Source: Deltaproteobacteria bacterium (lineage in GTDB: Bacteria > Desulfobacterota > Desulfobaccia > Desulfobaccales > 0-14-0-80-60-11). Taken from it: 47,988 nucleotides of DNA. This document shows positions 10,438 through 44,803 of this stretch, one piece after another. The stretch spans positions 1 to 47,988 of the forward strand of contig JAKAGH010000001.1 of the NCBI GenBank assembly GCA_021817645.1, given 5' to 3'. Each line of letters starts with the position of its first letter. The first letter of the stretch is position 1. The notes beneath the pieces are model-generated. The model was not told the DNA's origin and did not search any database. It saw nothing but the letters and a program-made list of their open reading frames with translations. The position numbers and the translations under genes are program-made.

Positions 10438-10461
10438 CAGGTTCCAGTGGAAGAGACAGAA

Positions 10462-11253
10462 ATGAAAAAACAAGCATTGGCCCATGACATGTCTGCGGAG
10501 TATTGGCCCGCGGAGGTGGATAATTCCTGGCAAGAGCAGATGGTGCTGCAATATGCGCCTCTGATCAAGTACATCGCCTCTCGCCTGGCGTTGCGCCTGC
10601 CGTCCCATATCTCCCTGGACGATCTGATCAGCTCCGGGATCATCGGCTTGATTGACGCCATCCACAAGTTCGATCCCAGCAAAAACATCAGTTTCAAGAC
10701 CTACGCGGAATTCCGCATCAAAGGCGCCATCCTGGACGAACTGCGCAGCCTGGACTGGATCCCCCGATCGGTGCGCAAAAAGACTCATCTTCTGGAAAAC
10801 GCCTACGCGGAATTACAAAAAACCCTGGGCCGGCCCGCCGAGCCGGAGGAAATAGCCCAGGCCCTGGGCATAGGCATAGAAGAGTTCTACCAGCTGCTGG
10901 ACGAGACCAAGGCGGTTTCTCTGGTGGAACTGGAGGGGGTGTGGAAGGCGATCAGCGGCAGCGCCGAACTCGCGGATAGTGATATGCCCGAAATCCTCCA
11001 GGATGAAAATATCCGGGATCCGTTCATGGCCGTACACTTCTCCCAGCTCCAGGAGGTCATGGTCCGGGGGATCGAGGCTTTGCCTGATAAAGAAAAGTTA
11101 TTGATTTCCCTGTATTACTACGAAGAACTGACCATGAAAGAAATCGGCCAGATCATGGGCTATACCGAATCCCGCATTTCCCAGTTGCATACCCAGGCGA
11201 TGTTGCGCCTCCGGGCCAAGTTGCGGGACCATTTCCAATTTGGAGATAAATAA
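10462..11253 (+). CDS. fliA: Flagellar sigma factor FliA (sigma-28)
   Basis: Sigma-70 family regions 2 (FKTYAEFRIKGAILDELR) and 4.2 (LTMKEIGQIMGYTESRISQLH) are present. ATG at 10462 follows a GGAAGAG; an in-frame GTG at 10447 is an alternative start. Confidence 0.9.
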   Translation: MKKQALAHDMSAEYWPAEVDNSWQEQMVLQYAPLIKYIASRLALRLPSHISLDDLISSGIIGLIDAIHKFDPSKNISFKTYAEFRIKGAILDELRSLDWIPRSVRKKTHLLENAYAELQKTLGRPAEPEEIAQALGIGIEEFYQLLDETKAVSLVELEGVWKAISGSAELADSDMPEILQDENIRDPFMAVHFSQLQEVMVRGIEALPDKEKLLISLYYYEELTMKEIGQIMGYTESRISQLHTQAMLRLRAKLRDHFQFGDK

Positions 11254-11254
11254 A

Positions 11255-11761
11255 ATGTGCCGGCGCTTGCTGCTGCGCGTGTTCCCCTTCTGTCTGGTGC
11301 TGGCCTTCTCTTGGGGTGCCGGAGTCCAGCAGAGTTGGGGCCAGATAAAGCAAATAGCCCCCCCGCAGCCCGGTCCCATCGTGGAGGCCAAGATCGGCGA
11401 GAAACCAGGGACTGAGAATTCCCTGCCGGTCGTGCAGGGCAAGATTGTGGAGAAAACCGGGGCTGGGAATTCCTTGCCTTTGGACCCCTTTTATTTGATT
11501 GAGGAAGAAGGCCCCCGGGTGCGGGTGCTGCGGGTGGCCCTGGCCCTGGAATTTGCGCAACCGGAAGTGAAGGGGGTCGTTGACCCCCAGGCGCCGCGTC
11601 TCAGAGAAATCGTCTACGACTTTTTGGTAAGTAAAGAGCATGACCCCGGCCTGGCAGGAAACGGCGAGCAGAAAATCCTGGCCGGATTAGTAAACCGCTA
11701 CCTGGGGCAGGAGGCGGTTACCGCCGTTAAGGTGGATCAAAGCTACCTCTTGCTCCCCTAG
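11255..11761 (+). CDS. Secreted FliL-like domain protein (FliL paralog candidate)
   Basis: The ATG lies 1 nt after the fliA stop, with a GGAG 9 nt upstream. It has a signal-peptide-like N-terminus (LLLRVFPFCLVLAFSWGAG). The C-terminal block PLDPFYL..RVLRVALALEF..PRLREIVYDFL..LVNRYLG..V aligns by eye with FliL at 1016..1492 (PLEPFLV..RYLKVKIDLEV..PRIRDQLIFLL). An internal 13-aa repeat is present (KIGEKPGTENSLP / KIVEKTGAGNSLP). Confidence 0.5.
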   Translation: MCRRLLLRVFPFCLVLAFSWGAGVQQSWGQIKQIAPPQPGPIVEAKIGEKPGTENSLPVVQGKIVEKTGAGNSLPLDPFYLIEEEGPRVRVLRVALALEFAQPEVKGVVDPQAPRLREIVYDFLVSKEHDPGLAGNGEQKILAGLVNRYLGQEAVTAVKVDQSYLLLP

Positions 11762-11775
11762 AGGGAGGAAAGACC

Positions 11776-11994
11776 ATGGATGGCATTGATTCGTCCGGGA
11801 GGGTTCCTATTATCCCCCCTGACCAGAACCTGATCAGCGACCATGTCCGGGAAAAAGGGGGCCAGTCCCGGCCCCAATATTTTGCCCAGAAACGAAAGCC
11901 AGCGGAGCCCCAACCAGAAGAACTAGTAGAAGAAGAGACCCCGGCTCCGGAAGAACCCGGGAAGCCGAAACACCACATCGACATCAAAGTTTGA
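11776..11994 (+). CDS. Hypothetical 72-aa acidic, Pro-rich protein
   Basis: A strong AGGGAGGAAAG precedes the ATG. It is packed tightly between neighbours on the same strand. No family was recognised. Confidence 0.5.
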   Translation: MDGIDSSGRVPIIPPDQNLISDHVREKGGQSRPQYFAQKRKPAEPQPEELVEEETPAPEEPGKPKHHIDIKV

Positions 11995-12009: not shown

Positions 12010-12459
12010 GTGTCTGCCAAAAACATGGAATATTGGATTTTCATCCAGATGATCCTGGAACTGGGCCTGATTGTAGTGGTGGCGATATCCTTGCTGCGGA
12101 TCAGGTCCTGGTACAAGAATATCATGGCGATGCAGGCAGGGCTGCCTTCCCGGGAAGACGCGGCCAAGATGGCGGAACTGGCCGCAGTTATGGAGGAACG
12201 GCGTCAGCATCTGGAAGAACTCCTAGGGCAACTGGAACAGAAAGCCACGGCTCTCCAGAAAAATCTCTCCCGGGGAGGGTCCAGGACCCAGTCCCCCGGC
12301 GACTCCCCGGCCCCCTGGGAAAGCGGCGTGTCCCTGCGCGTCCAGGTGGAGAATCTGTACCGCCAGGGCTGCTCCACCGAAGAGATCGCCCGGCGTCTGC
12401 AGATGAACCTGGCGGAAGTGAAAATGGCCCTGGACCTCTCCCGGGCCCGCCCGCGGTGA
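12010..12459 (+). CDS. Membrane-anchored protein with a C-terminal HTH, DUF2802-like (flagellar-cluster associated)
   Basis: It has an N-terminal TM (WIFIQMILELGLIVVVAISLL) and a coiled-coil-like middle. The C-terminus VENLYRQGCSTEEIARRLQMNLAEVKMALDL resembles the DUF2802/sigma region-4-like HTH found at the ends of flagellar/chemotaxis clusters. The start is GTG at 12010 or ATG at 12025. Confidence 0.5.
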   Translation: MSAKNMEYWIFIQMILELGLIVVVAISLLRIRSWYKNIMAMQAGLPSREDAAKMAELAAVMEERRQHLEELLGQLEQKATALQKNLSRGGSRTQSPGDSPAPWESGVSLRVQVENLYRQGCSTEEIARRLQMNLAEVKMALDLSRARPR

Positions 12460-12654: not shown

Positions 12655-13302
12655 CTAAACCATAGCTATATCATTAACATACCTACCGAATTCCTGGTCC
12701 ATCATCTTAATGTGCCCTGCAATCCATGATGAGATAATATCGCTGATATTATTAGGCGATAGCTGATTGTCAGTATAATAATCGTCTTCAAGCCCCATCA
12801 GTTTCTTCAGAAATTCATCGTGTTTTTCCCTATGCTCGAAATATTTTGGATAACCATACTTAATCATATACTCTTCTTCGGTCATAAAATGCTTAAAAAC
12901 ATATCTTCTCATATTCAAGATATAGAGATATATTTTCATCTTTACGTCTTTATCCACTATTATGATTGAAGGAGATGCATAAGTATCTCTGAACTTTTCA
13001 AACATTTTCAGAAATATTTCATGTTGTTTATCAATTTCGTTGATGCCAATGACGTAGGCATCATCCCCCAGGCCGCCTGCTGGCCTGCTGGCCGGCAGAG
13101 CCGGAAACTCACCCATTAAATGCTGATACGCGGTGTTAATTTCTTGCATCCGTCTCTCCCCCTGCATTTGCCTCCAGGGATCATCGGGAAAAAGGTCCGG
13201 ATGCCAGGCCTTGACCAGGCGCCGGTAAGCCAGCTTCACCTCTGGCAAGGAGGCGCCGGCTTTTATGCCTAGAGCAGCATAATACTGTAAAAGATGGTCC
13301 AT
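12655..13302 (-). CDS. J-domain (DnaJ-like) protein fused to a complete hemerythrin-like domain
   Basis: Single 215-codon frame. The N-terminal J domain reads YYAALGIKAGASLPEVKLAYRRLVKAWHPDLF, with an intact HPD. After a Pro/Ala/Gly linker come the hemerythrin metal ligand motifs DKQHEIF, KHFMTEEEYM, FEHREKHDEF and GHIKMMDQEF. Confidence 0.8.
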   Translation of the reverse strand: MDHLLQYYAALGIKAGASLPEVKLAYRRLVKAWHPDLFPDDPWRQMQGERRMQEINTAYQHLMGEFPALPASRPAGGLGDDAYVIGINEIDKQHEIFLKMFEKFRDTYASPSIIIVDKDVKMKIYLYILNMRRYVFKHFMTEEEYMIKYGYPKYFEHREKHDEFLKKLMGLEDDYYTDNQLSPNNISDIISSWIAGHIKMMDQEFGRYVNDIAMV

Positions 13303-13377
13303 GCCTCTATTCCGGTCAGCAGAAACTTATACCAAGTTCACTTCTTTGAGCAGCAAATTGAGAGTACCGCCGTGTAT

Positions 13378-13420
13378 CGGCGTGCATCGGCGGCTAATAT
13401 TTAACCGCCGGTGCACGCCG
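13378..13420. repeat. GC-rich 16-bp inverted repeat (one mismatch) between the two hemerythrin genes
   Basis: CGGCGTGCATCGGCGG, loop CTAATATTTAA, then CCGCCGGTGCACGCCG. On the plus strand it is followed by TTGTTCTTTCGTTT. There is no U-tract in the minus-strand sense. Confidence 0.7.
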
Positions 13421-13472
13421 TTGTTCTTTCGTTTAGTGACAGGTCAATATAAATTTGGCATTACATCGCTGA

Positions 13473-13913
13473 TTACGACTTCACCCCCACCATTGCTTTA
13501 TAATAATTGCCGAAAGCCTTATCCACCTTTTGGATATGTCCTTCCAACCAACTTAACATAAAATTTATTAACTTTTGCGGAGATATTTCTTGAGAATTAA
13601 TCACAGCTTCTTCTAATTCAAATACTTTCTTTATAAAAGCATCGTGTTGTTTTTTATGTTCAAAATATTGTTGATATTTACTACTAATCATATATTTCTC
13701 TTCCGTTAAGAAATGGTTAAATGCGTATTTTCTCAGGTTTAATACATCTAAATACATCTTCATTTTGACTTCATCATTTCCCAAAGAGTTAGACATATTT
13801 TCATAAGTTTCACTTACTCGATTGAGAAGATTTACAAATGATTCATGTTGAGCATCTATTTCATTTATGCCGATATTATAAAATTTATCCCAAATAAAAG
13901 GCATTTCGGGCAC
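13473..13913 (-). CDS. Bacteriohemerythrin (stand-alone, 146 aa)
   Basis: All four ligand motifs are present: IDAQHESF, NHFLTEEKYM, FEHKKQHDAF and GHIQKVDKAF. The gene is AT-rich compared with its surroundings. Confidence 0.85.
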   Translation of the reverse strand: MPEMPFIWDKFYNIGINEIDAQHESFVNLLNRVSETYENMSNSLGNDEVKMKMYLDVLNLRKYAFNHFLTEEKYMISSKYQQYFEHKKQHDAFIKKVFELEEAVINSQEISPQKLINFMLSWLEGHIQKVDKAFGNYYKAMVGVKS

Positions 13914-13937: not shown

Positions 13938-13966
13938 GATTTTTCAAAAATTAATAACTGGCTAGA
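13938..13966 (-). promoter_or_regulatory. Candidate sigma-70 promoter for the hemerythrin gene(s)
   Basis: The minus strand reads TTGACA-17 nt-TAATTT, about 25-50 nt upstream of the 13913 start. Confidence 0.3.
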
Positions 13967-14276
13967 TGATTGTCAATTATTCGACACTCTGAATTTTATG
14001 GGACTCTCCTGTGCCTGGCAGATGCCGGTGGCGCGCCGCACTGCGATCCCCGGCCCCAACCGCTCCTAACCGTGGGCGCCGGGTTGACAAGATGGCAGGT
14101 GCGATGGCGTCCCGCCCCGGGATGCAGCCTTCTCCCTTTTCCTCCTCTCCCCTCGTAAGTTATCTTTGCACCGCGGCCTTTTTCTAATAAGATGGTGGAG
14201 AAGATTTTTAGGGAGAAATGGGAGCTGCACCCCTGCAGGTCTCCCTGCTAACCAATTTTCCGAGGTCACGCGATCC

Positions 14277-15995
14277 ATGGATCTCAACCGATGGCAGCAG
14301 CGGCTTCAGGCGGCGCGGGGTGAAGTGCCCGCGGATTTGGTGCTCGCCGGCGCCAAGGTGGCCGGCGTCTATACCGGCGAATGGCGGCAAGCGGACGTGG
14401 CCATTTTTGACGGGGTGATTGTCGGCCTGGGGGAATACTCCGGCCCCCGGCTGGACCTCTCGGGCCGCTTTCTCCTGCCGGGCCTGATCGACGGCCATCT
14501 GCACCTGGAGAGCAGTATGCTCACGCCCCGGGAGTTGGCCCGGGCCCTCCTGCCTTTGGGCACCACTTCGGTGGTGGCCGACCCCCACGAGATCGCCAAT
14601 GTTTGGGGCGCGCAGGGCCTGGATTACCTCCTGGCGGCCAGTGAGGGACTCCCCCTGGACATCTTTTTCATGCTCCCTTCCTGTGTCCCGGCCTCGCCCC
14701 TGGAGACCGCGGGGGCCCGGCTGGAGGCCCCGGACCTCCAGCCTTACGTGCGCCACCCCCGGGTCCTGGGCCTGGCGGAAGTAATGAACTTTCCCGGAGT
14801 GGTGGCCGGCGATCCGGGTCTGGCTGCGAAGATCGCCCTCTTCCCCCACCGGCCCGTGGACGGCCACGCCCCCCTGCTCTCCGGCAAGGGTCTGAATGCC
14901 TACCGGCTGGCGGGGATCGGCTCCGACCACGAATGTACCCAGCTGGCCGAGGCCCGGGAGAAACTGGAACTGGGTTTTCACCTCATGCTCCGGGAAGGGA
15001 GCCTGGCGAAAAATTTGGCCGATCTGCTGCCCGCGGTCACCCCGGCTTCCCTCGGTCGCACCATGCTGGTCACGGACGACTGCCACCCGGAAGATATTTT
15101 GGCGCACGGCCACCTGAACCATTTGCTGCGCCTGAGCGTTTCTCTGGGGCTGGACCCCCTGGCCGCCGTGACCATGGCCACCCTCAACCCTGCCTCTTAC
15201 TTTCGGCTGCGGGACCGGGGCGCGGTGGCCCCGGGCCTGGCCGCGGACCTGGTGGCGGTGGAGAATCTGGAGACCTTCCACATCGACAAGGTCTTGAAAA
15301 ACGGCAAGTTGTTGGTGGATGGAGGACGTCTTACCGGCGGTCTAGAATTTCCCCCTTATACAACACCGGTGCCGACCATGCGGGTCAAGATGCCGGAGTT
15401 GGCGGCCTTTTCTCCCCCGGCCGGGGGTGAGCTGGTCAAGGTCATCGGCCTCATTCCCGGCCAACTGCTGACGGAGAAACGAGTCCTGCCTGCGCCCGTC
15501 CGCCATGGCCGCCTGGCCGCGGACCCGTTACAAGACCTGCTGAAACTGGCGGTGGTGGAGCGCCACCACGGCAGCGGCAACCTGGGGCTGGGCCTGGTCC
15601 AGGGCTTCGGCTTAAAGCGGGGGGCGCTGGCCTCTTCAGTGGCCCATGATTCCCACAATATCGTGGTGGTGGGCGCGGATGAAGCGGATATGCTTCGGGC
15701 CGTGGCCCATCTGGTTAAGCTTAAAGGCGGCCTGGCGGTGGTGGCCGGGGGCCAGGTGCTGGCGGACCTGCCTTTGCCCATCGCCGGACTCATCAGTCCC
15801 CGCCCCCTGGAGGAAGTAGCCGCGGCTTACGGCCGCGTACAGGCGGCCTACCGGTCCCTGGGCGGGGAACTGCCCGATCCCTTCATGGCCCTGTCCTTCC
15901 TGGCCCTGCCGGTGATCCCGGCGTTAAAACTGACCGACCTGGGGTTGGTGGATGTGAATAAGTTTGAGGTGGTGCCGCTGTTTGGAGAAGATTAG
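14277..15995 (+). CDS. ade: Adenine deaminase
   Basis: Amidohydrolase motifs LPGLIDGHLHLESSML and GTTSVVADPHEIANV are present. About 572 aa from the ATG at 14277. The longer ORF-track start at 14166 has no support. Confidence 0.85.
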   Translation: MDLNRWQQRLQAARGEVPADLVLAGAKVAGVYTGEWRQADVAIFDGVIVGLGEYSGPRLDLSGRFLLPGLIDGHLHLESSMLTPRELARALLPLGTTSVVADPHEIANVWGAQGLDYLLAASEGLPLDIFFMLPSCVPASPLETAGARLEAPDLQPYVRHPRVLGLAEVMNFPGVVAGDPGLAAKIALFPHRPVDGHAPLLSGKGLNAYRLAGIGSDHECTQLAEAREKLELGFHLMLREGSLAKNLADLLPAVTPASLGRTMLVTDDCHPEDILAHGHLNHLLRLSVSLGLDPLAAVTMATLNPASYFRLRDRGAVAPGLAADLVAVENLETFHIDKVLKNGKLLVDGGRLTGGLEFPPYTTPVPTMRVKMPELAAFSPPAGGELVKVIGLIPGQLLTEKRVLPAPVRHGRLAADPLQDLLKLAVVERHHGSGNLGLGLVQGFGLKRGALASSVAHDSHNIVVVGADEADMLRAVAHLVKLKGGLAVVAGGQVLADLPLPIAGLISPRPLEEVAAAYGRVQAAYRSLGGELPDPFMALSFLALPVIPALKLTDLGLVDVNKFEVVPLFGED

Positions 15996-26968: not shown

Positions 26969-28261
26969 TTGGCCTTTAAACGCAATTTTCTCTGGATGCT
27001 GGCCAGCAGAATCGTACAGATGTCTGCTGGCCTTTTTATGGGCGCGCTCATCAACCGTTCCCTGGGGCCCGCGGGCCGGGGCATTTATGCGGAAGTGCTG
27101 ACCTGGGTAAGCCTGTTCGTGATGGTTTTTGGGTTAAGCATAGACACGGCCATTTATCATCTGGCCAATCGCAGCGCTTACGGCGAGGACGACGCGTCCC
27201 GGTTCGCCACCATCCTTTGGCTGAACCTGGGCTACTCCCTGCTGGCGGTGGCGGGCCTAAGCGTCCTGGTGCATTACTGGTCCCACCTGGTCTCCGCCAC
27301 CACGGCGCAGCACGTTTTTCTCCTGGCGGTGCTGATCCTGGTCTCCATGCTGGCCAGCAACCTGCTGGTCTTTTACCAGGCCATGGGCAACATCAAAGCC
27401 GCCGCGGTCATCGGCATGGCCCAGCTCCTGGTGCAAGCGGCCTTGATTATCGCCGCTTATCTCGGCGGCTTTCTGACCCTGCCCTTTATCTTCTGGAGCA
27501 TGGTCATCATGCAACTCGCGGGCGTGATCCTGCTGCTGGGGCTGGCCTGGCAAAGCCGGCTCATGAGCGGGCGCTTTTCCCTGGAGATGGCCAAAATTAT
27601 TTTATCCGCAGGGCTGAAGCAGCATGTGGCCACCATTTGCACCTTTGCCTATACGAAGGTTAACCAGTTAATCTTATTCAGATATTGTGGCGAGGTGGCC
27701 ACCGGCATCTTTTCCGTCTCCCTGGCCATCGCCCTGGCCCTGATGTTTATCCCTCAGACTTTTCAAACGGTCCTCTATCCCCGGGTAATTCACGGGGATG
27801 ACGACTACGAAGTGACGGTGCGCGCCCTGCGGGTGGGCTTTTATACCTGGGGTCTGATGGTCCTGGGGATCATGCTCCTGGCCCGGCCGATCCTCCTGGT
27901 TTATGGCGGCGCCAGCTTTCTTTCCTCCGTCAACCTGCTGCGCATCCTGATGATCGGGGCCTGGTTTTTGCCGCTGTCCTCCCTGGTTGCCCCCTATTAC
28001 GTCAAGAAGGGGGCTTTTGGCCTGGGTTCTACTTCCGCGGTGATCCTGGCCGTTTTTAGTATCGGGTTGAACTTTATCTTGGTGCCTCGCTATGCTGCGG
28101 TGGGGGCGGCCCTGGCCACCTCCGTTACCTGCCTGGTGGGTTTCGGCCTGGTGCTGGGATTATTGTATCTGATCTCCAAAAAGAATCCCCTGGTGATCTT
28201 TATCCCGGCCCTGGCCAGGGAATTGAAGCAGTTGCGAATTAAAAACTTGTTTTCTTCTTAG
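26969..28261 (+). CDS. Wzx-type oligosaccharide flippase (MOP superfamily)
   Basis: 430 aa with about 12 or more TM spans. TTG start lies 5 nt after an AAGGA. The polysaccharide locus context supports the call. Confidence 0.7.
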   Translation: MAFKRNFLWMLASRIVQMSAGLFMGALINRSLGPAGRGIYAEVLTWVSLFVMVFGLSIDTAIYHLANRSAYGEDDASRFATILWLNLGYSLLAVAGLSVLVHYWSHLVSATTAQHVFLLAVLILVSMLASNLLVFYQAMGNIKAAAVIGMAQLLVQAALIIAAYLGGFLTLPFIFWSMVIMQLAGVILLLGLAWQSRLMSGRFSLEMAKIILSAGLKQHVATICTFAYTKVNQLILFRYCGEVATGIFSVSLAIALALMFIPQTFQTVLYPRVIHGDDDYEVTVRALRVGFYTWGLMVLGIMLLARPILLVYGGASFLSSVNLLRILMIGAWFLPLSSLVAPYYVKKGAFGLGSTSAVILAVFSIGLNFILVPRYAAVGAALATSVTCLVGFGLVLGLLYLISKKNPLVIFIPALARELKQLRIKNLFSS

Positions 28262-28294
28262 ATGAATCTCACTGAGCAAAATCGGTCTTAAACA

Positions 28295-29518
28295 ATGAAG
28301 GCAAAATTTTATTTTCTGCCATTATTGCTGCTTTATGTGGCTATCATTCTCTTAGCCTACCATAATAATTTGCAGGACGACGAAATCCGCTACGTAACTT
28401 TCGCCAGGAATTTATCCCAAGGTTTTTATAGCCCCGCCGATAACATTAATCTCTGGAGCGGCCCCGGTTATCCGCTGCTGCTGTTGCCCTTCGTAATCTT
28501 GAAATTAGATGGCCTGCCCATCAAAATACTGAATGCCTTTTTGTTATTTTTTGCCGTTATCTACTTTTACAATACCTTAAAAATATATTTGGATCAGAAA
28601 TACGCCCTATATATCTCATATATCCTAGGCTTATACCCGCCGATCTTGCGGGATCTACACATGATCCTGACCGAAACTTTTGTCTGCTTTCTTATTTGCG
28701 GGTTTATTTACCATTTCTGCAAGCTTCTGCAACATGAGGCCACAAATAGATTTCATCTGGTCATTGCCTCTTTGTACCTGGCGTTTATCGCCCTGACCAA
28801 AATAATATTTGGATATGTGATATTAATAGTAATCGCAATATTTTTTGTAGTCTCCGCGATAAGACGAAAAAAGAGCGTGATGAAAGTATTAGCCGTTAAT
28901 ATCATCGCCATGCTTTTCTGTTTGCCCTATCTTTTTTATACTTATTCACTTACCGGTAAGATGTTTTATTGGGGAACTTCCGGGGGCATGTCCCTCTATT
29001 GGATGTCCACTCCTTACAGCGGCGAACTTGGCAATTGGTGTGATTGGAGTCAGGTATATGCGCAGCCGCAGTTATATGCCAACCATCATCAATTTTTTGA
29101 CCGGATTGCCCCGCTGGACAACGTGCAGCGGGACGAAGAGTTCAAGAAACAAGGATTAAGAAACATCTGGGCGCATCCGCAGAAATTTCTGGCAAACTGG
29201 ATGTGTAATCTGGGACGCCTGTTGTTTTCTTATCCTTTTTCTTATAAACTCCAATCACCCACAACATTCTTTTATTTAATACCTAATATGTTTTTGGTGG
29301 TCCTCTCAATTTTATGTATTTACCCCACGATAACAAGGTACCACAATGTACCATTTGAAATAATTATTCTTCTTTTAATATCTGTCATATATTTAGGCGG
29401 ATCAACCTTGCTCAGTGCTTATGAAAGGCAATTACGCCCGATTTTCCCCATTTTATTCTTATGGATATCTTTCACCTTGTTGAGAATTATGGAAATCAGG
29501 ATACGTGCGGCTGATTAA
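28295..29518 (+). CDS. GT-C fold membrane glycosyltransferase (ArnT/PMT-like), AT-rich
   Basis: 407-aa polytopic protein. The first loop carries LQDDEIRYVTFARNL...GPGYPLLLLPF, resembling the acidic DE/DD motif of GT39/GT83-type enzymes. Its composition is markedly more AT-rich than its neighbours. Confidence 0.5.
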   Translation: MKAKFYFLPLLLLYVAIILLAYHNNLQDDEIRYVTFARNLSQGFYSPADNINLWSGPGYPLLLLPFVILKLDGLPIKILNAFLLFFAVIYFYNTLKIYLDQKYALYISYILGLYPPILRDLHMILTETFVCFLICGFIYHFCKLLQHEATNRFHLVIASLYLAFIALTKIIFGYVILIVIAIFFVVSAIRRKKSVMKVLAVNIIAMLFCLPYLFYTYSLTGKMFYWGTSGGMSLYWMSTPYSGELGNWCDWSQVYAQPQLYANHHQFFDRIAPLDNVQRDEEFKKQGLRNIWAHPQKFLANWMCNLGRLLFSYPFSYKLQSPTTFFYLIPNMFLVVLSILCIYPTITRYHNVPFEIIILLLISVIYLGGSTLLSAYERQLRPIFPILFLWISFTLLRIMEIRIRAAD

Positions 29519-44097: not shown

Positions 44098-44544
44098 TTA
44101 AGCCGGTTTGGCGGCTTTACGTGCGCCTCTTTTGGCGCCCAGGCCTTTTTCTACCGCCAGCTTCCGGCGCTGCTCAGAATATTCCTTGCATACTAGAGGA
44201 TATTTCTTGGGATCCAGGTCGAATCTCTTAAAATATTCTTTCGGCATTAAATTGTGGGCCTTACGGATATGGGCCTTTAAAGTGCGCATCTTCTTGCCGC
44301 ACTCCAGACAAACCACGTACTTTTCTTTGACAATGTCCTTGAGGGGAATCGAGGGCTTCTTTACCCCTTCCACTTCTTTGCCCTTTGCCAGCTCGGGGCC
44401 TTCCAACAATGCCCCGCCTTCCAAAGAGGCCAAGGCATTATAGACCTCTTTAATTTCGTCCACTAACTCTGTGGAGGTGAGTTCACTCATTGATGCATGG
44501 GAGATTACAATCTGGGCTGTTAACTTTAACACTTCCGTAGCCAT
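44098..44544 (-). CDS. mucR: MucR/Ros family zinc-finger transcriptional regulator
   Basis: The N-terminus MATEVLKLTAQIVISHAS and the zinc site VVCLECGKKMRTLKAHIRKAH are present. The ATG at 44544 follows a GAGGAAG. The longer ORF-track form translates AT-rich leader sequence. Confidence 0.85.
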   Translation of the reverse strand: MATEVLKLTAQIVISHASMSELTSTELVDEIKEVYNALASLEGGALLEGPELAKGKEVEGVKKPSIPLKDIVKEKYVVCLECGKKMRTLKAHIRKAHNLMPKEYFKRFDLDPKKYPLVCKEYSEQRRKLAVEKGLGAKRGARKAAKPA

Positions 44545-44803
44545 AAAATTCTTCCTCTCTCTTTTGCTAGAATTATTTTCCGTAAATGATATAATTTTTA
44601 TTATTCTTTTTATCTTGTCAAGGTTTTTGTTTTGATTTCGTTTTTTTTTACTTAGTAAACATTCTTGAATTTGCTGCCGGTGACTCTTTTTCCCCTTGGA
44701 AGCAATCGATGTTTGCCAATAAATTTCCCCGAGATAAGTTTTGCTGGTAACAGCACCTTTCACCTGTTAATTGCCGCTGACGATCCCCCCACCTACAGAG
44801 AAA

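Follow-up and report, generated by a model that had tools for sequence, protein, structure and literature searches.

J-domain proteins determine the place and time of Hsp70 action, and hemerythrin domains are established sensors of O2 or redox state. For bacterial hemerythrin sensors, a review of 2022 describes chemotaxis, cyclic di-GMP (c-di-GMP), and P-type ATPase classes only (PMC9388753). In one of these sensors, DcrH, the N-terminal loop of the hemerythrin domain takes on an ordered structure in the met form, whereas it is disordered in the deoxy form (PMC9388753). Hemerythrins of Campylobacter jejuni help to shield Fe-S enzymes from oxygen (PMC4257069), and the eukaryotic FBXL5 is an iron-responsive E3 ligase, the stability of whose hemerythrin-like domain has been exploited in reporters (PMC3537052, PMC12379171). 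Among J proteins, DnaJ-Fer has been proposed to couple redox state to Hsp70, and the function of CDJ3-5 is stated as unknown (PMC3564930; bioRxiv 10.1101/2025.08.22.671721). Here we analyze a stretch of 47,988 nucleotides (the window) from a Deltaproteobacteria bacterium (assembly GCA_021817645.1, contig JAKAGH010000001.1), which contains a cassette of two genes, one for a stand-alone hemerythrin and one for a protein, termed J-Hr, in which a J domain is fused to a hemerythrin domain. Judged from its sequence, J-Hr may be a class C J protein carrying an O2- or redox-sensitive di-iron sensor or targeting module, by which the recruitment of DnaK would become dependent on O2 or iron, a reading to which we assign a probability of roughly 0.45.

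J-Hr is encoded by the second gene of the cassette (12655..13302, minus strand), the 215 codons and stop codon of which form a single open reading frame (ORF) that begins with ATG and contains neither an internal stop nor a frameshift. The uninterrupted 215-codon frame joining both domains, noticed in a first-pass annotation of the sequence, is therefore real, and both Pfam domains lie above their cut-offs. The J domain (residues 1-66; 13105..13302, minus strand) comprises helix I, helix II, the HPD loop, and helix III. It is followed by a Pro/Ala/Gly-rich linker of 13 residues and variable sequence (residues 67-79; 13066..13104, minus strand), within which lies a tandem 8-nt repeat, GGCCAGCA GGCCAGCA (13078..13093, minus strand), and by the hemerythrin domain (residues 80-215; 12658..13065, minus strand), which accounts for the Pfam Hemerythrin and TIGR02481 matches and for all iron ligands. 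The first gene of the cassette (13473..13904, minus strand) encodes the stand-alone bacteriohemerythrin, 143 amino acids (aa) long from an ATG at 13904, and is separated from the fusion gene by an intergenic spacer of 170 nt (13303..13472, minus strand). An alternative GTG start at 13913 would extend this protein to the 146 aa given in the first-pass annotation. As the orthologues in loci L001, L004, L005, and L087 are all 143 aa long, the start at 13904 is most likely the one used, and of the earlier description the position directly upstream on the same strand remains but not the length. Both cassette genes are located on the minus strand, a point on which that annotation needs correction.

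The J domain is recognized by the Pfam model DnaJ (PF00226) over residues 6-63 with 44.8 bits (cut-off 27.8), in line with the domain of about 65 residues and intact HPD tripeptide reported earlier. The HPD codons (H34, P35, and D36; 13195..13203, minus strand) are invariant in 7/7 family members, and so are Y26, R27, L29, and K31 of helix II in the alignment of the seven proteins. Compared with the J domain of E. coli DnaJ, for which an unverified sequence was used, identity amounts to 35% (E = 2e-10), and residues Y26, R27, R28, and L29 align with Y25, K26, R27, and L28 of that same sequence. A profile of the family also matches isolated J domains of solved structure, for example 2dmx (E = 1.6e-10) and 5nro_B (E = 3.4e-7). 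Since the Pfam match covers positions 1-54 of the 63 profile positions and the AlphaFold2 model contains three helices in this part (residues 2-10, 19-33, and 48-63), helix IV seems to be absent or replaced by the linker. DnaJ and Hemerythrin are the only Pfam families detected in J-Hr, which possesses no Gly/Phe region and no zinc-finger or DnaJ C-terminal domains, and the full-length DnaJ equivalog models of NCBIfam give 20-43 bits at cut-offs of 338-619. These comparisons show J-Hr to be, by its predicted domain content, a class C (type III) J-domain protein with hemerythrin as its sole non-J module. A J domain of the HscB type was considered and rejected, given that the HscB models of NCBIfam stay far below their cut-offs (13-14 bits versus 47-189) and that BLASTP yielded no alignment of the J domain with E. 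coli HscB (unverified sequence).

Within J-Hr, PF01814 matches residues 86-206 with 42.0 bits (cut-off 25.3) and TIGR02481 reaches 86.4 bits (cut-off 51.75), whereas the bacteriohemerythrin model NF033749 gives 82.7 bits and is 1.3 bits short of its cut-off of 84. The stand-alone hemerythrin passes all three cut-offs, with 47.6, 97.7, and 97.4 bits, respectively. The di-iron ligands of J-Hr are H94, H138, E142, H157, H161, H197, and D202; they are invariant in 7/7 fusion proteins, and the stand-alone paralogues retain ligands at the equivalent positions. Their arrangement is the canonical H ... HxxxE ... HxxxH ... HxxxxD, so that all four motif types previously listed are indeed present, although the H-x3-E motif, said to occur twice, occurs only once. 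The closest relatives of known structure are McHr from Methylococcus (4xpx; E = 6e-12) and DcrH-Hr, and sequence comparison with solved structures revealed no chain covering both the J and the hemerythrin part. Residues F139, W193, and I194 of J-Hr align with pocket and gate residues of McHr, and the pocket and gate motif SW(I/L)xxHI aligns with W113-L114 of McHr, L114 being the gate position. An AlphaFold2 model of J-Hr, built from a shallow alignment of seven sequences, has a mean predicted local distance difference test (pLDDT) score of 62.9, with about 70-80 in the hemerythrin part, and was used for the hemerythrin fold only. In this part four long helices are modelled (residues 88-108, 118-148, 154-177, and 183-212), with template-modelling (TM) scores of 0.83 to 4xpx (normalized to the target) and 0.81 to DcrH-Hr. 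Profiles, ligands, and modelled fold show that the hemerythrin domain of J-Hr is complete and of the predicted O2-binding bacteriohemerythrin type, and that the upstream gene encodes a single-domain bacteriohemerythrin of the same predicted O2-binding di-iron type. Both domains of J-Hr score against their models, as had been anticipated, and apart from the NF033749 cut-off the protein displays every sequence-level feature of class C J proteins and of bacteriohemerythrins that was looked for.

In a search of 5.8 billion clustered proteins, seven 90%-identity clusters with a DnaJ+Hemerythrin architecture were found, with identities of 100, 85, 79, 63, 58, 58, and 50%, which derive from NCBI, ENA, JGI, and Logan assemblies. 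An exhaustive HMMER pass gave 11,528 hits among 1.84 billion representatives at 50% identity, and a single representative (P0009, 219 aa) matches over both the J and the hemerythrin domain. Among the best 150 of the 11,528 hits, the other proteins with several matching stretches are tandem hemerythrins, or possess J domains together with WD40, with RDD/TPR, or with nothing else. As a J-hemerythrin fusion from elsewhere would score additively, it would be expected within these best 150. Furthermore, hidden Markov models of both domains were run on six-frame translations of loci and their flanks. Both domains were encountered in one gene or within 10 kb in 0/80 of the best genome loci (one genome per species, 185,579 species) and within 4-kb flanks in 0/80 of the best metagenome loci; the known family members were not among the matches listed in the genome and metagenome scans, which are weak on frequency. 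A wider association of hemerythrin and J-protein genes was rejected, as among these best 80 genome and 80 metagenome loci none outside the family had both. A literature search retrieved no relevant paper that combines hemerythrin with a J domain or DnaJ, and a 2016 survey of 56 hemerythrin architectures mentions neither DnaJ nor chaperones in its text. Fusions of a J domain with hemerythrin are apparently very rare and undescribed, and the earlier statement that the architecture is uncommon and lacks a characterized example agrees with the one cluster found and with the literature.

The two parts of the fusion differ in base composition. Both hemerythrin stretches have a GC content of 27-35%, compared with a window average of 57%. 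At third codon positions, the GC content (GC3) is 0.28 in the stand-alone hemerythrin gene, 0.38-0.39 in the hemerythrin part of the fusion, 0.61-0.62 in its J-domain part, and 0.71-0.80 in neighboring genes, and the transition from GC-rich J-domain DNA to AT-rich hemerythrin DNA lies in the linker. This mosaic is common to five independent loci (the window, L001, L004, L005, and L087), with a GC3 of 0.26-0.44 for hemerythrin, about 0.6 for the J domain, and 0.71-0.83 for the neighboring genes, and is therefore not an assembly effect. The low GC3 persists across synonymous divergences of 0.5-1.5 without amelioration. The simplest history is that foreign, low-GC hemerythrin DNA became joined to a GC-richer J-domain segment.

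The sharpness of this GC break, together with a locus (L089) in which both domains are encoded as separate overlapping ORFs, might raise the suspicion that the fusion is an artefact, that is, an assembly chimera or a product of a frameshift. However, both the in-frame junction and the GC break recur in independent assemblies, contigs of 13 kb and 94 kb included, which argues against a chimera, and the members concerned are 50-85% identical and associated with the same partner gene. The arrangement in L089 (158-797; GCA_040960625.1) can be explained by one copy of the 8-nt repeat GGCCAGCA that is missing from the linker, the loss of which shifted the frame, and the split form is therefore a derived state. 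Either a sequencing error or genuine slippage may lie behind this split, and when the J domain alone served as the query of a word-index search, the split variant was the only hit. The artefact explanation, to which we give hardly any credence, was rejected, and the first-pass annotation, which had asked for a chimera or frameshift at the junction to be excluded, is answered by the independent assemblies.

Selection seems to act on both domains. The ratio of nonsynonymous to synonymous substitution (dN/dS), estimated by the method of Nei and Gojobori, ranges over 0.25-0.5 in the J domain of the fusion, 0.16-0.3 in its hemerythrin domain, and 0.08-0.27 in the stand-alone hemerythrin gene. Over the linker (residues 67-82) dN/dS is about 1; the linker sequence differs among the seven aligned proteins, one of which is shorter by four residues at this point. 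The low values in the J and hemerythrin domains indicate that both are kept by selection, whereas the value for the linker suggests that it acts as a flexible tether. Estimated in this way, both domains are under purifying selection and the fusion is, on this evidence, functional. These data also bear on the possibility that the domains work independently of each other, the hemerythrin domain scavenging or buffering O2 and the J domain aiding the folding or solubility of its own protein or being a neutral passenger of a chance fusion. The GC3 mosaic (about 0.6 in the J part and 0.26-0.39 in the hemerythrin part), which suggests two DNA origins joined at the linker, would fit such an explanation, as would the very narrow family (one cluster at 50% identity), the loss of the fusion in sister lineages described below, and the existence of the split variant. 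Yet HPD, Y26, R27, L29, and K31 are invariant down to 50% identity and at synonymous divergences above 1, over which a neutral passenger would have decayed, so that we consider independent domains very unlikely.

Both hemerythrins of the cassette are related to each other, with 45% identity over 129 ungapped residues (E = 1e-42), and the paralogy proposed earlier is thereby substantiated. In a neighbor-joining tree, stand-alone hemerythrins and fusion hemerythrin domains form two sister clades, with bootstrap values of 93.5% and 89.5% for the two clades and 84% for their union, which fall to 68%, 66%, and 40% when three more sequences are added. Sister clades with congruent internal branching suggest one duplication before the known members diverged, and the tree thus points to a single old duplication as the probable origin of both hemerythrins. 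In flanking housekeeping genes, the window differs from L087 by a synonymous divergence of about 0.3 and from L001 by one of 0.6-0.9; values for the cassette are similar or higher, which fits vertical descent. In three further loci, the same syntenic slot holds a stand-alone hemerythrin only (L091:2666-3022, L092:8433-8789, and L090:8424-8669). In L091 and L092, a relic of the C-terminal end of J-Hr, SWLYYHIKRMDQDFGRYFNEIIG, is still encoded in the spacer (tblastn, E = 1e-8), and the hemerythrins of L090-L092 nest inside the clade of fusion-carrying genomes. Relic and nesting indicate that the fusion was lost secondarily and that the plain hemerythrin was kept. Neither this loss nor the compositional mosaic or the split variant is mentioned in the first-pass annotation.

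Wherever a contig is long enough to show it, the two genes occur as a pair: the 143-aa hemerythrin gene lies directly 5' of the fusion gene on the same strand in L001, L004, L005, L087, and L088. The gap between the cassette genes is 170 nt in the window and 33-44 nt in the other loci, or is replaced by a 4-nt overlap. In the most divergent member, L004, the same gene pair is situated between LEA_2 and DUF362, so that the conserved unit is the pair and not its neighborhood. Upstream of the first gene, five loci, the non-syntenic L004 included, share a promoter-like element, which in the window is located at 13948..13976 (minus strand; TTGACA, 17 nt, TAATTT), 5' of the stand-alone hemerythrin gene, and which has the general form TTGACA, 17 nt, TAnnnT. 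TTGACAA is invariant, and 5/5 loci have, at an identical distance from it, the T, A, and last T of the downstream hexamer; the element is not listed by a consensus scanner, its -10 hexamer matching at 3/6 positions. The cassette would thus have its own conserved promoter of the sigma-70 type. No sigma-28 or sigma-54 consensus was seen in the aligned upstream regions, which were checked by eye only. The spacer between the genes of the window contains an insertion of about 130 nt that is specific to it and forms a near-perfect hairpin (13379-13419; 15-bp arms, z = -4.5), with no T-run after it. Expression of J-Hr might be uncoupled or modulated by this insertion, whose hairpin motif is absent from all other loci compared. 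Rfam gave nothing above threshold in the whole window or around the cassette.

Pairing and paralogy are also what a co-chaperone devoted to metallo-centers would predict. J-Hr might resemble HscB in docking on the paralogous hemerythrin, through the four-helix bundle that both share, and in bringing DnaK to it; DnaK would then load, repair, or strip the di-iron site of the partner after autoxidation, and this partner, as an O2 scavenger or iron store, would be the real effector. A class C J protein is usually dedicated to one client, as exemplified by HscB and IscU, and this habit is in favor of such a co-chaperone, as are the strict pairing of genes that are closely spaced or overlapping, the paralogy of the two hemerythrin parts, and the retention of the hemerythrin gene in lineages without J-Hr, as expected if J-Hr is accessory. 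In contrast, the J domain differs from the HscB type, seven iron ligands under selection would be needless in a mere docking domain, and neither clade-specific residues nor charges give any signal of an interface. Taking these points together, we consider a dedicated hemerythrin co-chaperone of this kind unlikely.

Our preferred reading is that J-Hr itself carries an O2- or redox-sensitive module for sensing or targeting. The hemerythrin gene and J-Hr would form a co-transcribed two-gene module, for which the occurrence of a hemerythrin gene ahead of J-Hr in every locus showing it, the different neighborhood of L004 included, is supportive. In this module, the HPD loop and the basic helix II of J-Hr would trigger ATP hydrolysis by DnaK, and the hemerythrin domain would be the sensing or targeting module, the di-iron site of which would react with O2 or oxidants. 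As the N-terminal loop of the hemerythrin domain follows the linker, redox-dependent ordering of this loop, as known from DcrH, might couple the di-iron site to the J domain. Redox state would then set either the access of the J domain to DnaK or what the hemerythrin domain holds beside the J domain. The most economical client would be a hemerythrin, either the co-expressed paralogue or the oxidized or iron-free domain of J-Hr itself. The net effect would be an oxygen- or iron-dependent recruitment of DnaK in an anaerobe. An anaerobic host, as supposed earlier, is plausible in view of the 79%-identical orthologue in the syntenic locus L087, a contig of a metagenome-assembled genome annotated as belonging to the order Desulfobaccales (class Desulfobaccia, phylum Thermodesulfobacteriota). 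A bolder version, which is possible but doubtful, would make J-Hr the first gas- or redox-gated J co-chaperone, in which oxidation of the di-iron site by O2 hides or exposes the J domain and by which an obligate anaerobe would steer DnaK to a specific task within seconds of meeting oxygen. With such a gate, DnaK might be directed to rescuing or recycling hemerythrin or further iron proteins, or to inducing a stress regulon.

Several observations weigh against a sensor role of J-Hr. Iron binding, O2 reactivity, and DnaK stimulation are predictions from homology. The J part of the structure model has a pLDDT below 50, and the model is uninformative on contacts between the domains. No dnaK gene is present within the window. 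At least in three sister lineages the fusion appears to be dispensable, as they deleted J-Hr and kept the hemerythrin gene, and L089 holds the domains as separate ORFs, with 77 aa for J and 149 aa for hemerythrin. Those bacterial hemerythrin domains of known structure that are closest to J-Hr are monomeric, which makes a hetero-oligomer of J-Hr and its partner less than certain, and clade-specific residues and net charges show no dedicated interface between the hemerythrin and J-Hr.

A different use of the same parts would be a folding switch like that of FBXL5, in which the iron-free or oxidized hemerythrin domain unfolds, becomes a client of DnaK that is delivered in cis by its own J domain, titrates DnaK, and in this way induces the heat-shock or stress regulon. 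Besides the eukaryotic precedent (FBXL5; PMC3537052, PMC12379171), the flexible linker, which would let the J domain act in cis, and the loop between helices A and B are in its favor. This A-B loop is 8 residues longer than in McHr, and the insertion contains the hydrophobic run IIIV in the protein of the window. The run, however, is not conserved across the family, and the constant presence of a second hemerythrin gene beside J-Hr would be left unexplained, so that a folding switch seems quite unlikely. If J-Hr is instead a sensor-bearing class C J protein, O2, oxidants, or iron would directly control the recruitment of a chaperone in a compact protein of 215 residues, and bacterial hemerythrin sensors would have a fourth output beside chemotaxis, c-di-GMP, and transport. 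J-Hr would at the same time be a bacterial counterpart of the chloroplast DnaJ-Fer proteins and of iron sensing of the FBXL5 type. Natural variants, namely fusion present, fusion deleted with a relic, and fusion split by slippage of 8 nt, provide ready-made controls. With a single cluster among 1.84 billion representatives and losses in sister lineages, the system is narrowly distributed, which limits its general biological weight.

With respect to the genomic surroundings, the 94-kb contig of L087 is fully syntenic with the window. On one strand, both share flagellar export genes, flhF, flhG, fliA, two small ORFs, and DUF6115; on the opposite strand follows the convergent cassette, and then come genes for an adenine deaminase, an ornithine cyclodeaminase, and an O-antigen ligase. 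The first-pass annotation had placed the pair directly after the tail of the fliA operon and had considered a link to motility or aerotaxis conceivable. As fliA (10447..11253) and the tail genes are on the plus strand, the cassette is convergent to them and not downstream. Convergent orientation and the conserved sigma-70-type promoter led us to drop the tie to fliA, and with L004 located between unrelated genes, membership in a flagellar or sigma-28 regulon was rejected as well. The two small ORFs after fliA, which are without Pfam match, and the weak DUF6115 (26.7 bits, cut-off 27), located at 11240-11994 and 12010-12459 (plus strand), occur in the same order in all syntenic loci and represent an uncharacterized tail of the flagellar operon. 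On the other side of the cassette, the ORF for adenine deaminase (14166-15995, plus strand; 609 aa from TTG) is probably too long, as orthologues are 572 aa long and begin with MDLNRW, to which the ATG at 14277 is the equivalent start. A leader of about 290 nt before this gene (13990-14276, plus strand) is conserved in six loci and contains a GC-rich stem followed by a T-run, which is terminator-like, without a match in Rfam and with an unfavorable covariation term in RNAalifold (+3.5 kcal/mol). The leader may act as an attenuator or represent an as yet uncharacterized regulatory RNA.

Other islands of low GC content exist in the window. MucR proteins are H-NS-like silencers that bind AT-rich DNA in alphaproteobacteria, and a regulator of the ROS/MucR family (Pfam, 119.9 bits) is encoded at 44098-44763 (minus strand) in another low-GC island of 41% GC. 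By analogy, AT-rich islands such as the hemerythrin cassette might be silenced by a MucR-type protein, which we put forward as an idea. A second low-GC island of about 40% GC (28200-29400) contains an ORF (28295-29518, plus strand; 407 aa) without Pfam match, which is situated inside a glycosyltransferase/O-antigen cluster and looks like a horizontally acquired polysaccharide gene.

When J-Hr and its partner are compared with known systems, the stand-alone gene is an ordinary member of the single-domain group to which McHr and C. jejuni HerA/HerB belong, and protection of Fe-S enzymes in an anaerobe would, by analogy, be a plausible role. The cassette subfamily differs from McHr by the longer A-B loop and by the J domain that one of its copies bears. 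HscB/Jac1 and J-Hr share the order of a J domain and a small all-helical domain, the connection with iron-cofactor biology, and a single partner encoded nearby. Unlike HscB/Jac1, J-Hr has a DnaJ-like J domain and a C-terminal domain predicted to be a metalloprotein in its own right; isc and hscA genes were not found nearby in the window. In FBXL5 and in BTS/HRZ of plants, as in J-Hr, an iron or oxygen sensor of the hemerythrin type is fused to an effector of protein quality control, but these proteins are eukaryotic, their effector is an E3 ligase, and their hemerythrin-like domains form a divergent branch, whereas the domain of J-Hr is of the O2-binding bacteriohemerythrin type. DnaJ-Fer/CDJ3-CDJ5 of chloroplasts and Thaumarchaeota resemble J-Hr in combining a class C J protein with a redox-active iron module. 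Their module is a 4Fe-4S ferredoxin, in contrast to the di-iron four-helix bundle of J-Hr, and the lineages differ; as a Pfam scan detects no Fer4 family in J-Hr, this likeness is an analogy only, and J-Hr is not one of these proteins but may work in a comparable manner. Finally, DcrH, Bhr-DGC, Bhr-HD-GYP, and the P1B-5 ATPase all join, like J-Hr, a di-iron domain with a full set of ligands to an effector, and in DcrH, as in J-Hr, the hemerythrin domain is C-terminal and attached through its N terminus (PMC9388753). The output domain is MCP in DcrH, GGDEF in Bhr-DGC, and HD-GYP in Bhr-HD-GYP, whereas it is the J domain in J-Hr, in which Pfam and NCBIfam detect no MCP, GGDEF, HD-GYP, or kinase domain. 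By its domain composition, J-Hr stands outside every described class of hemerythrin sensors and, by analogy, may nevertheless work as they do.

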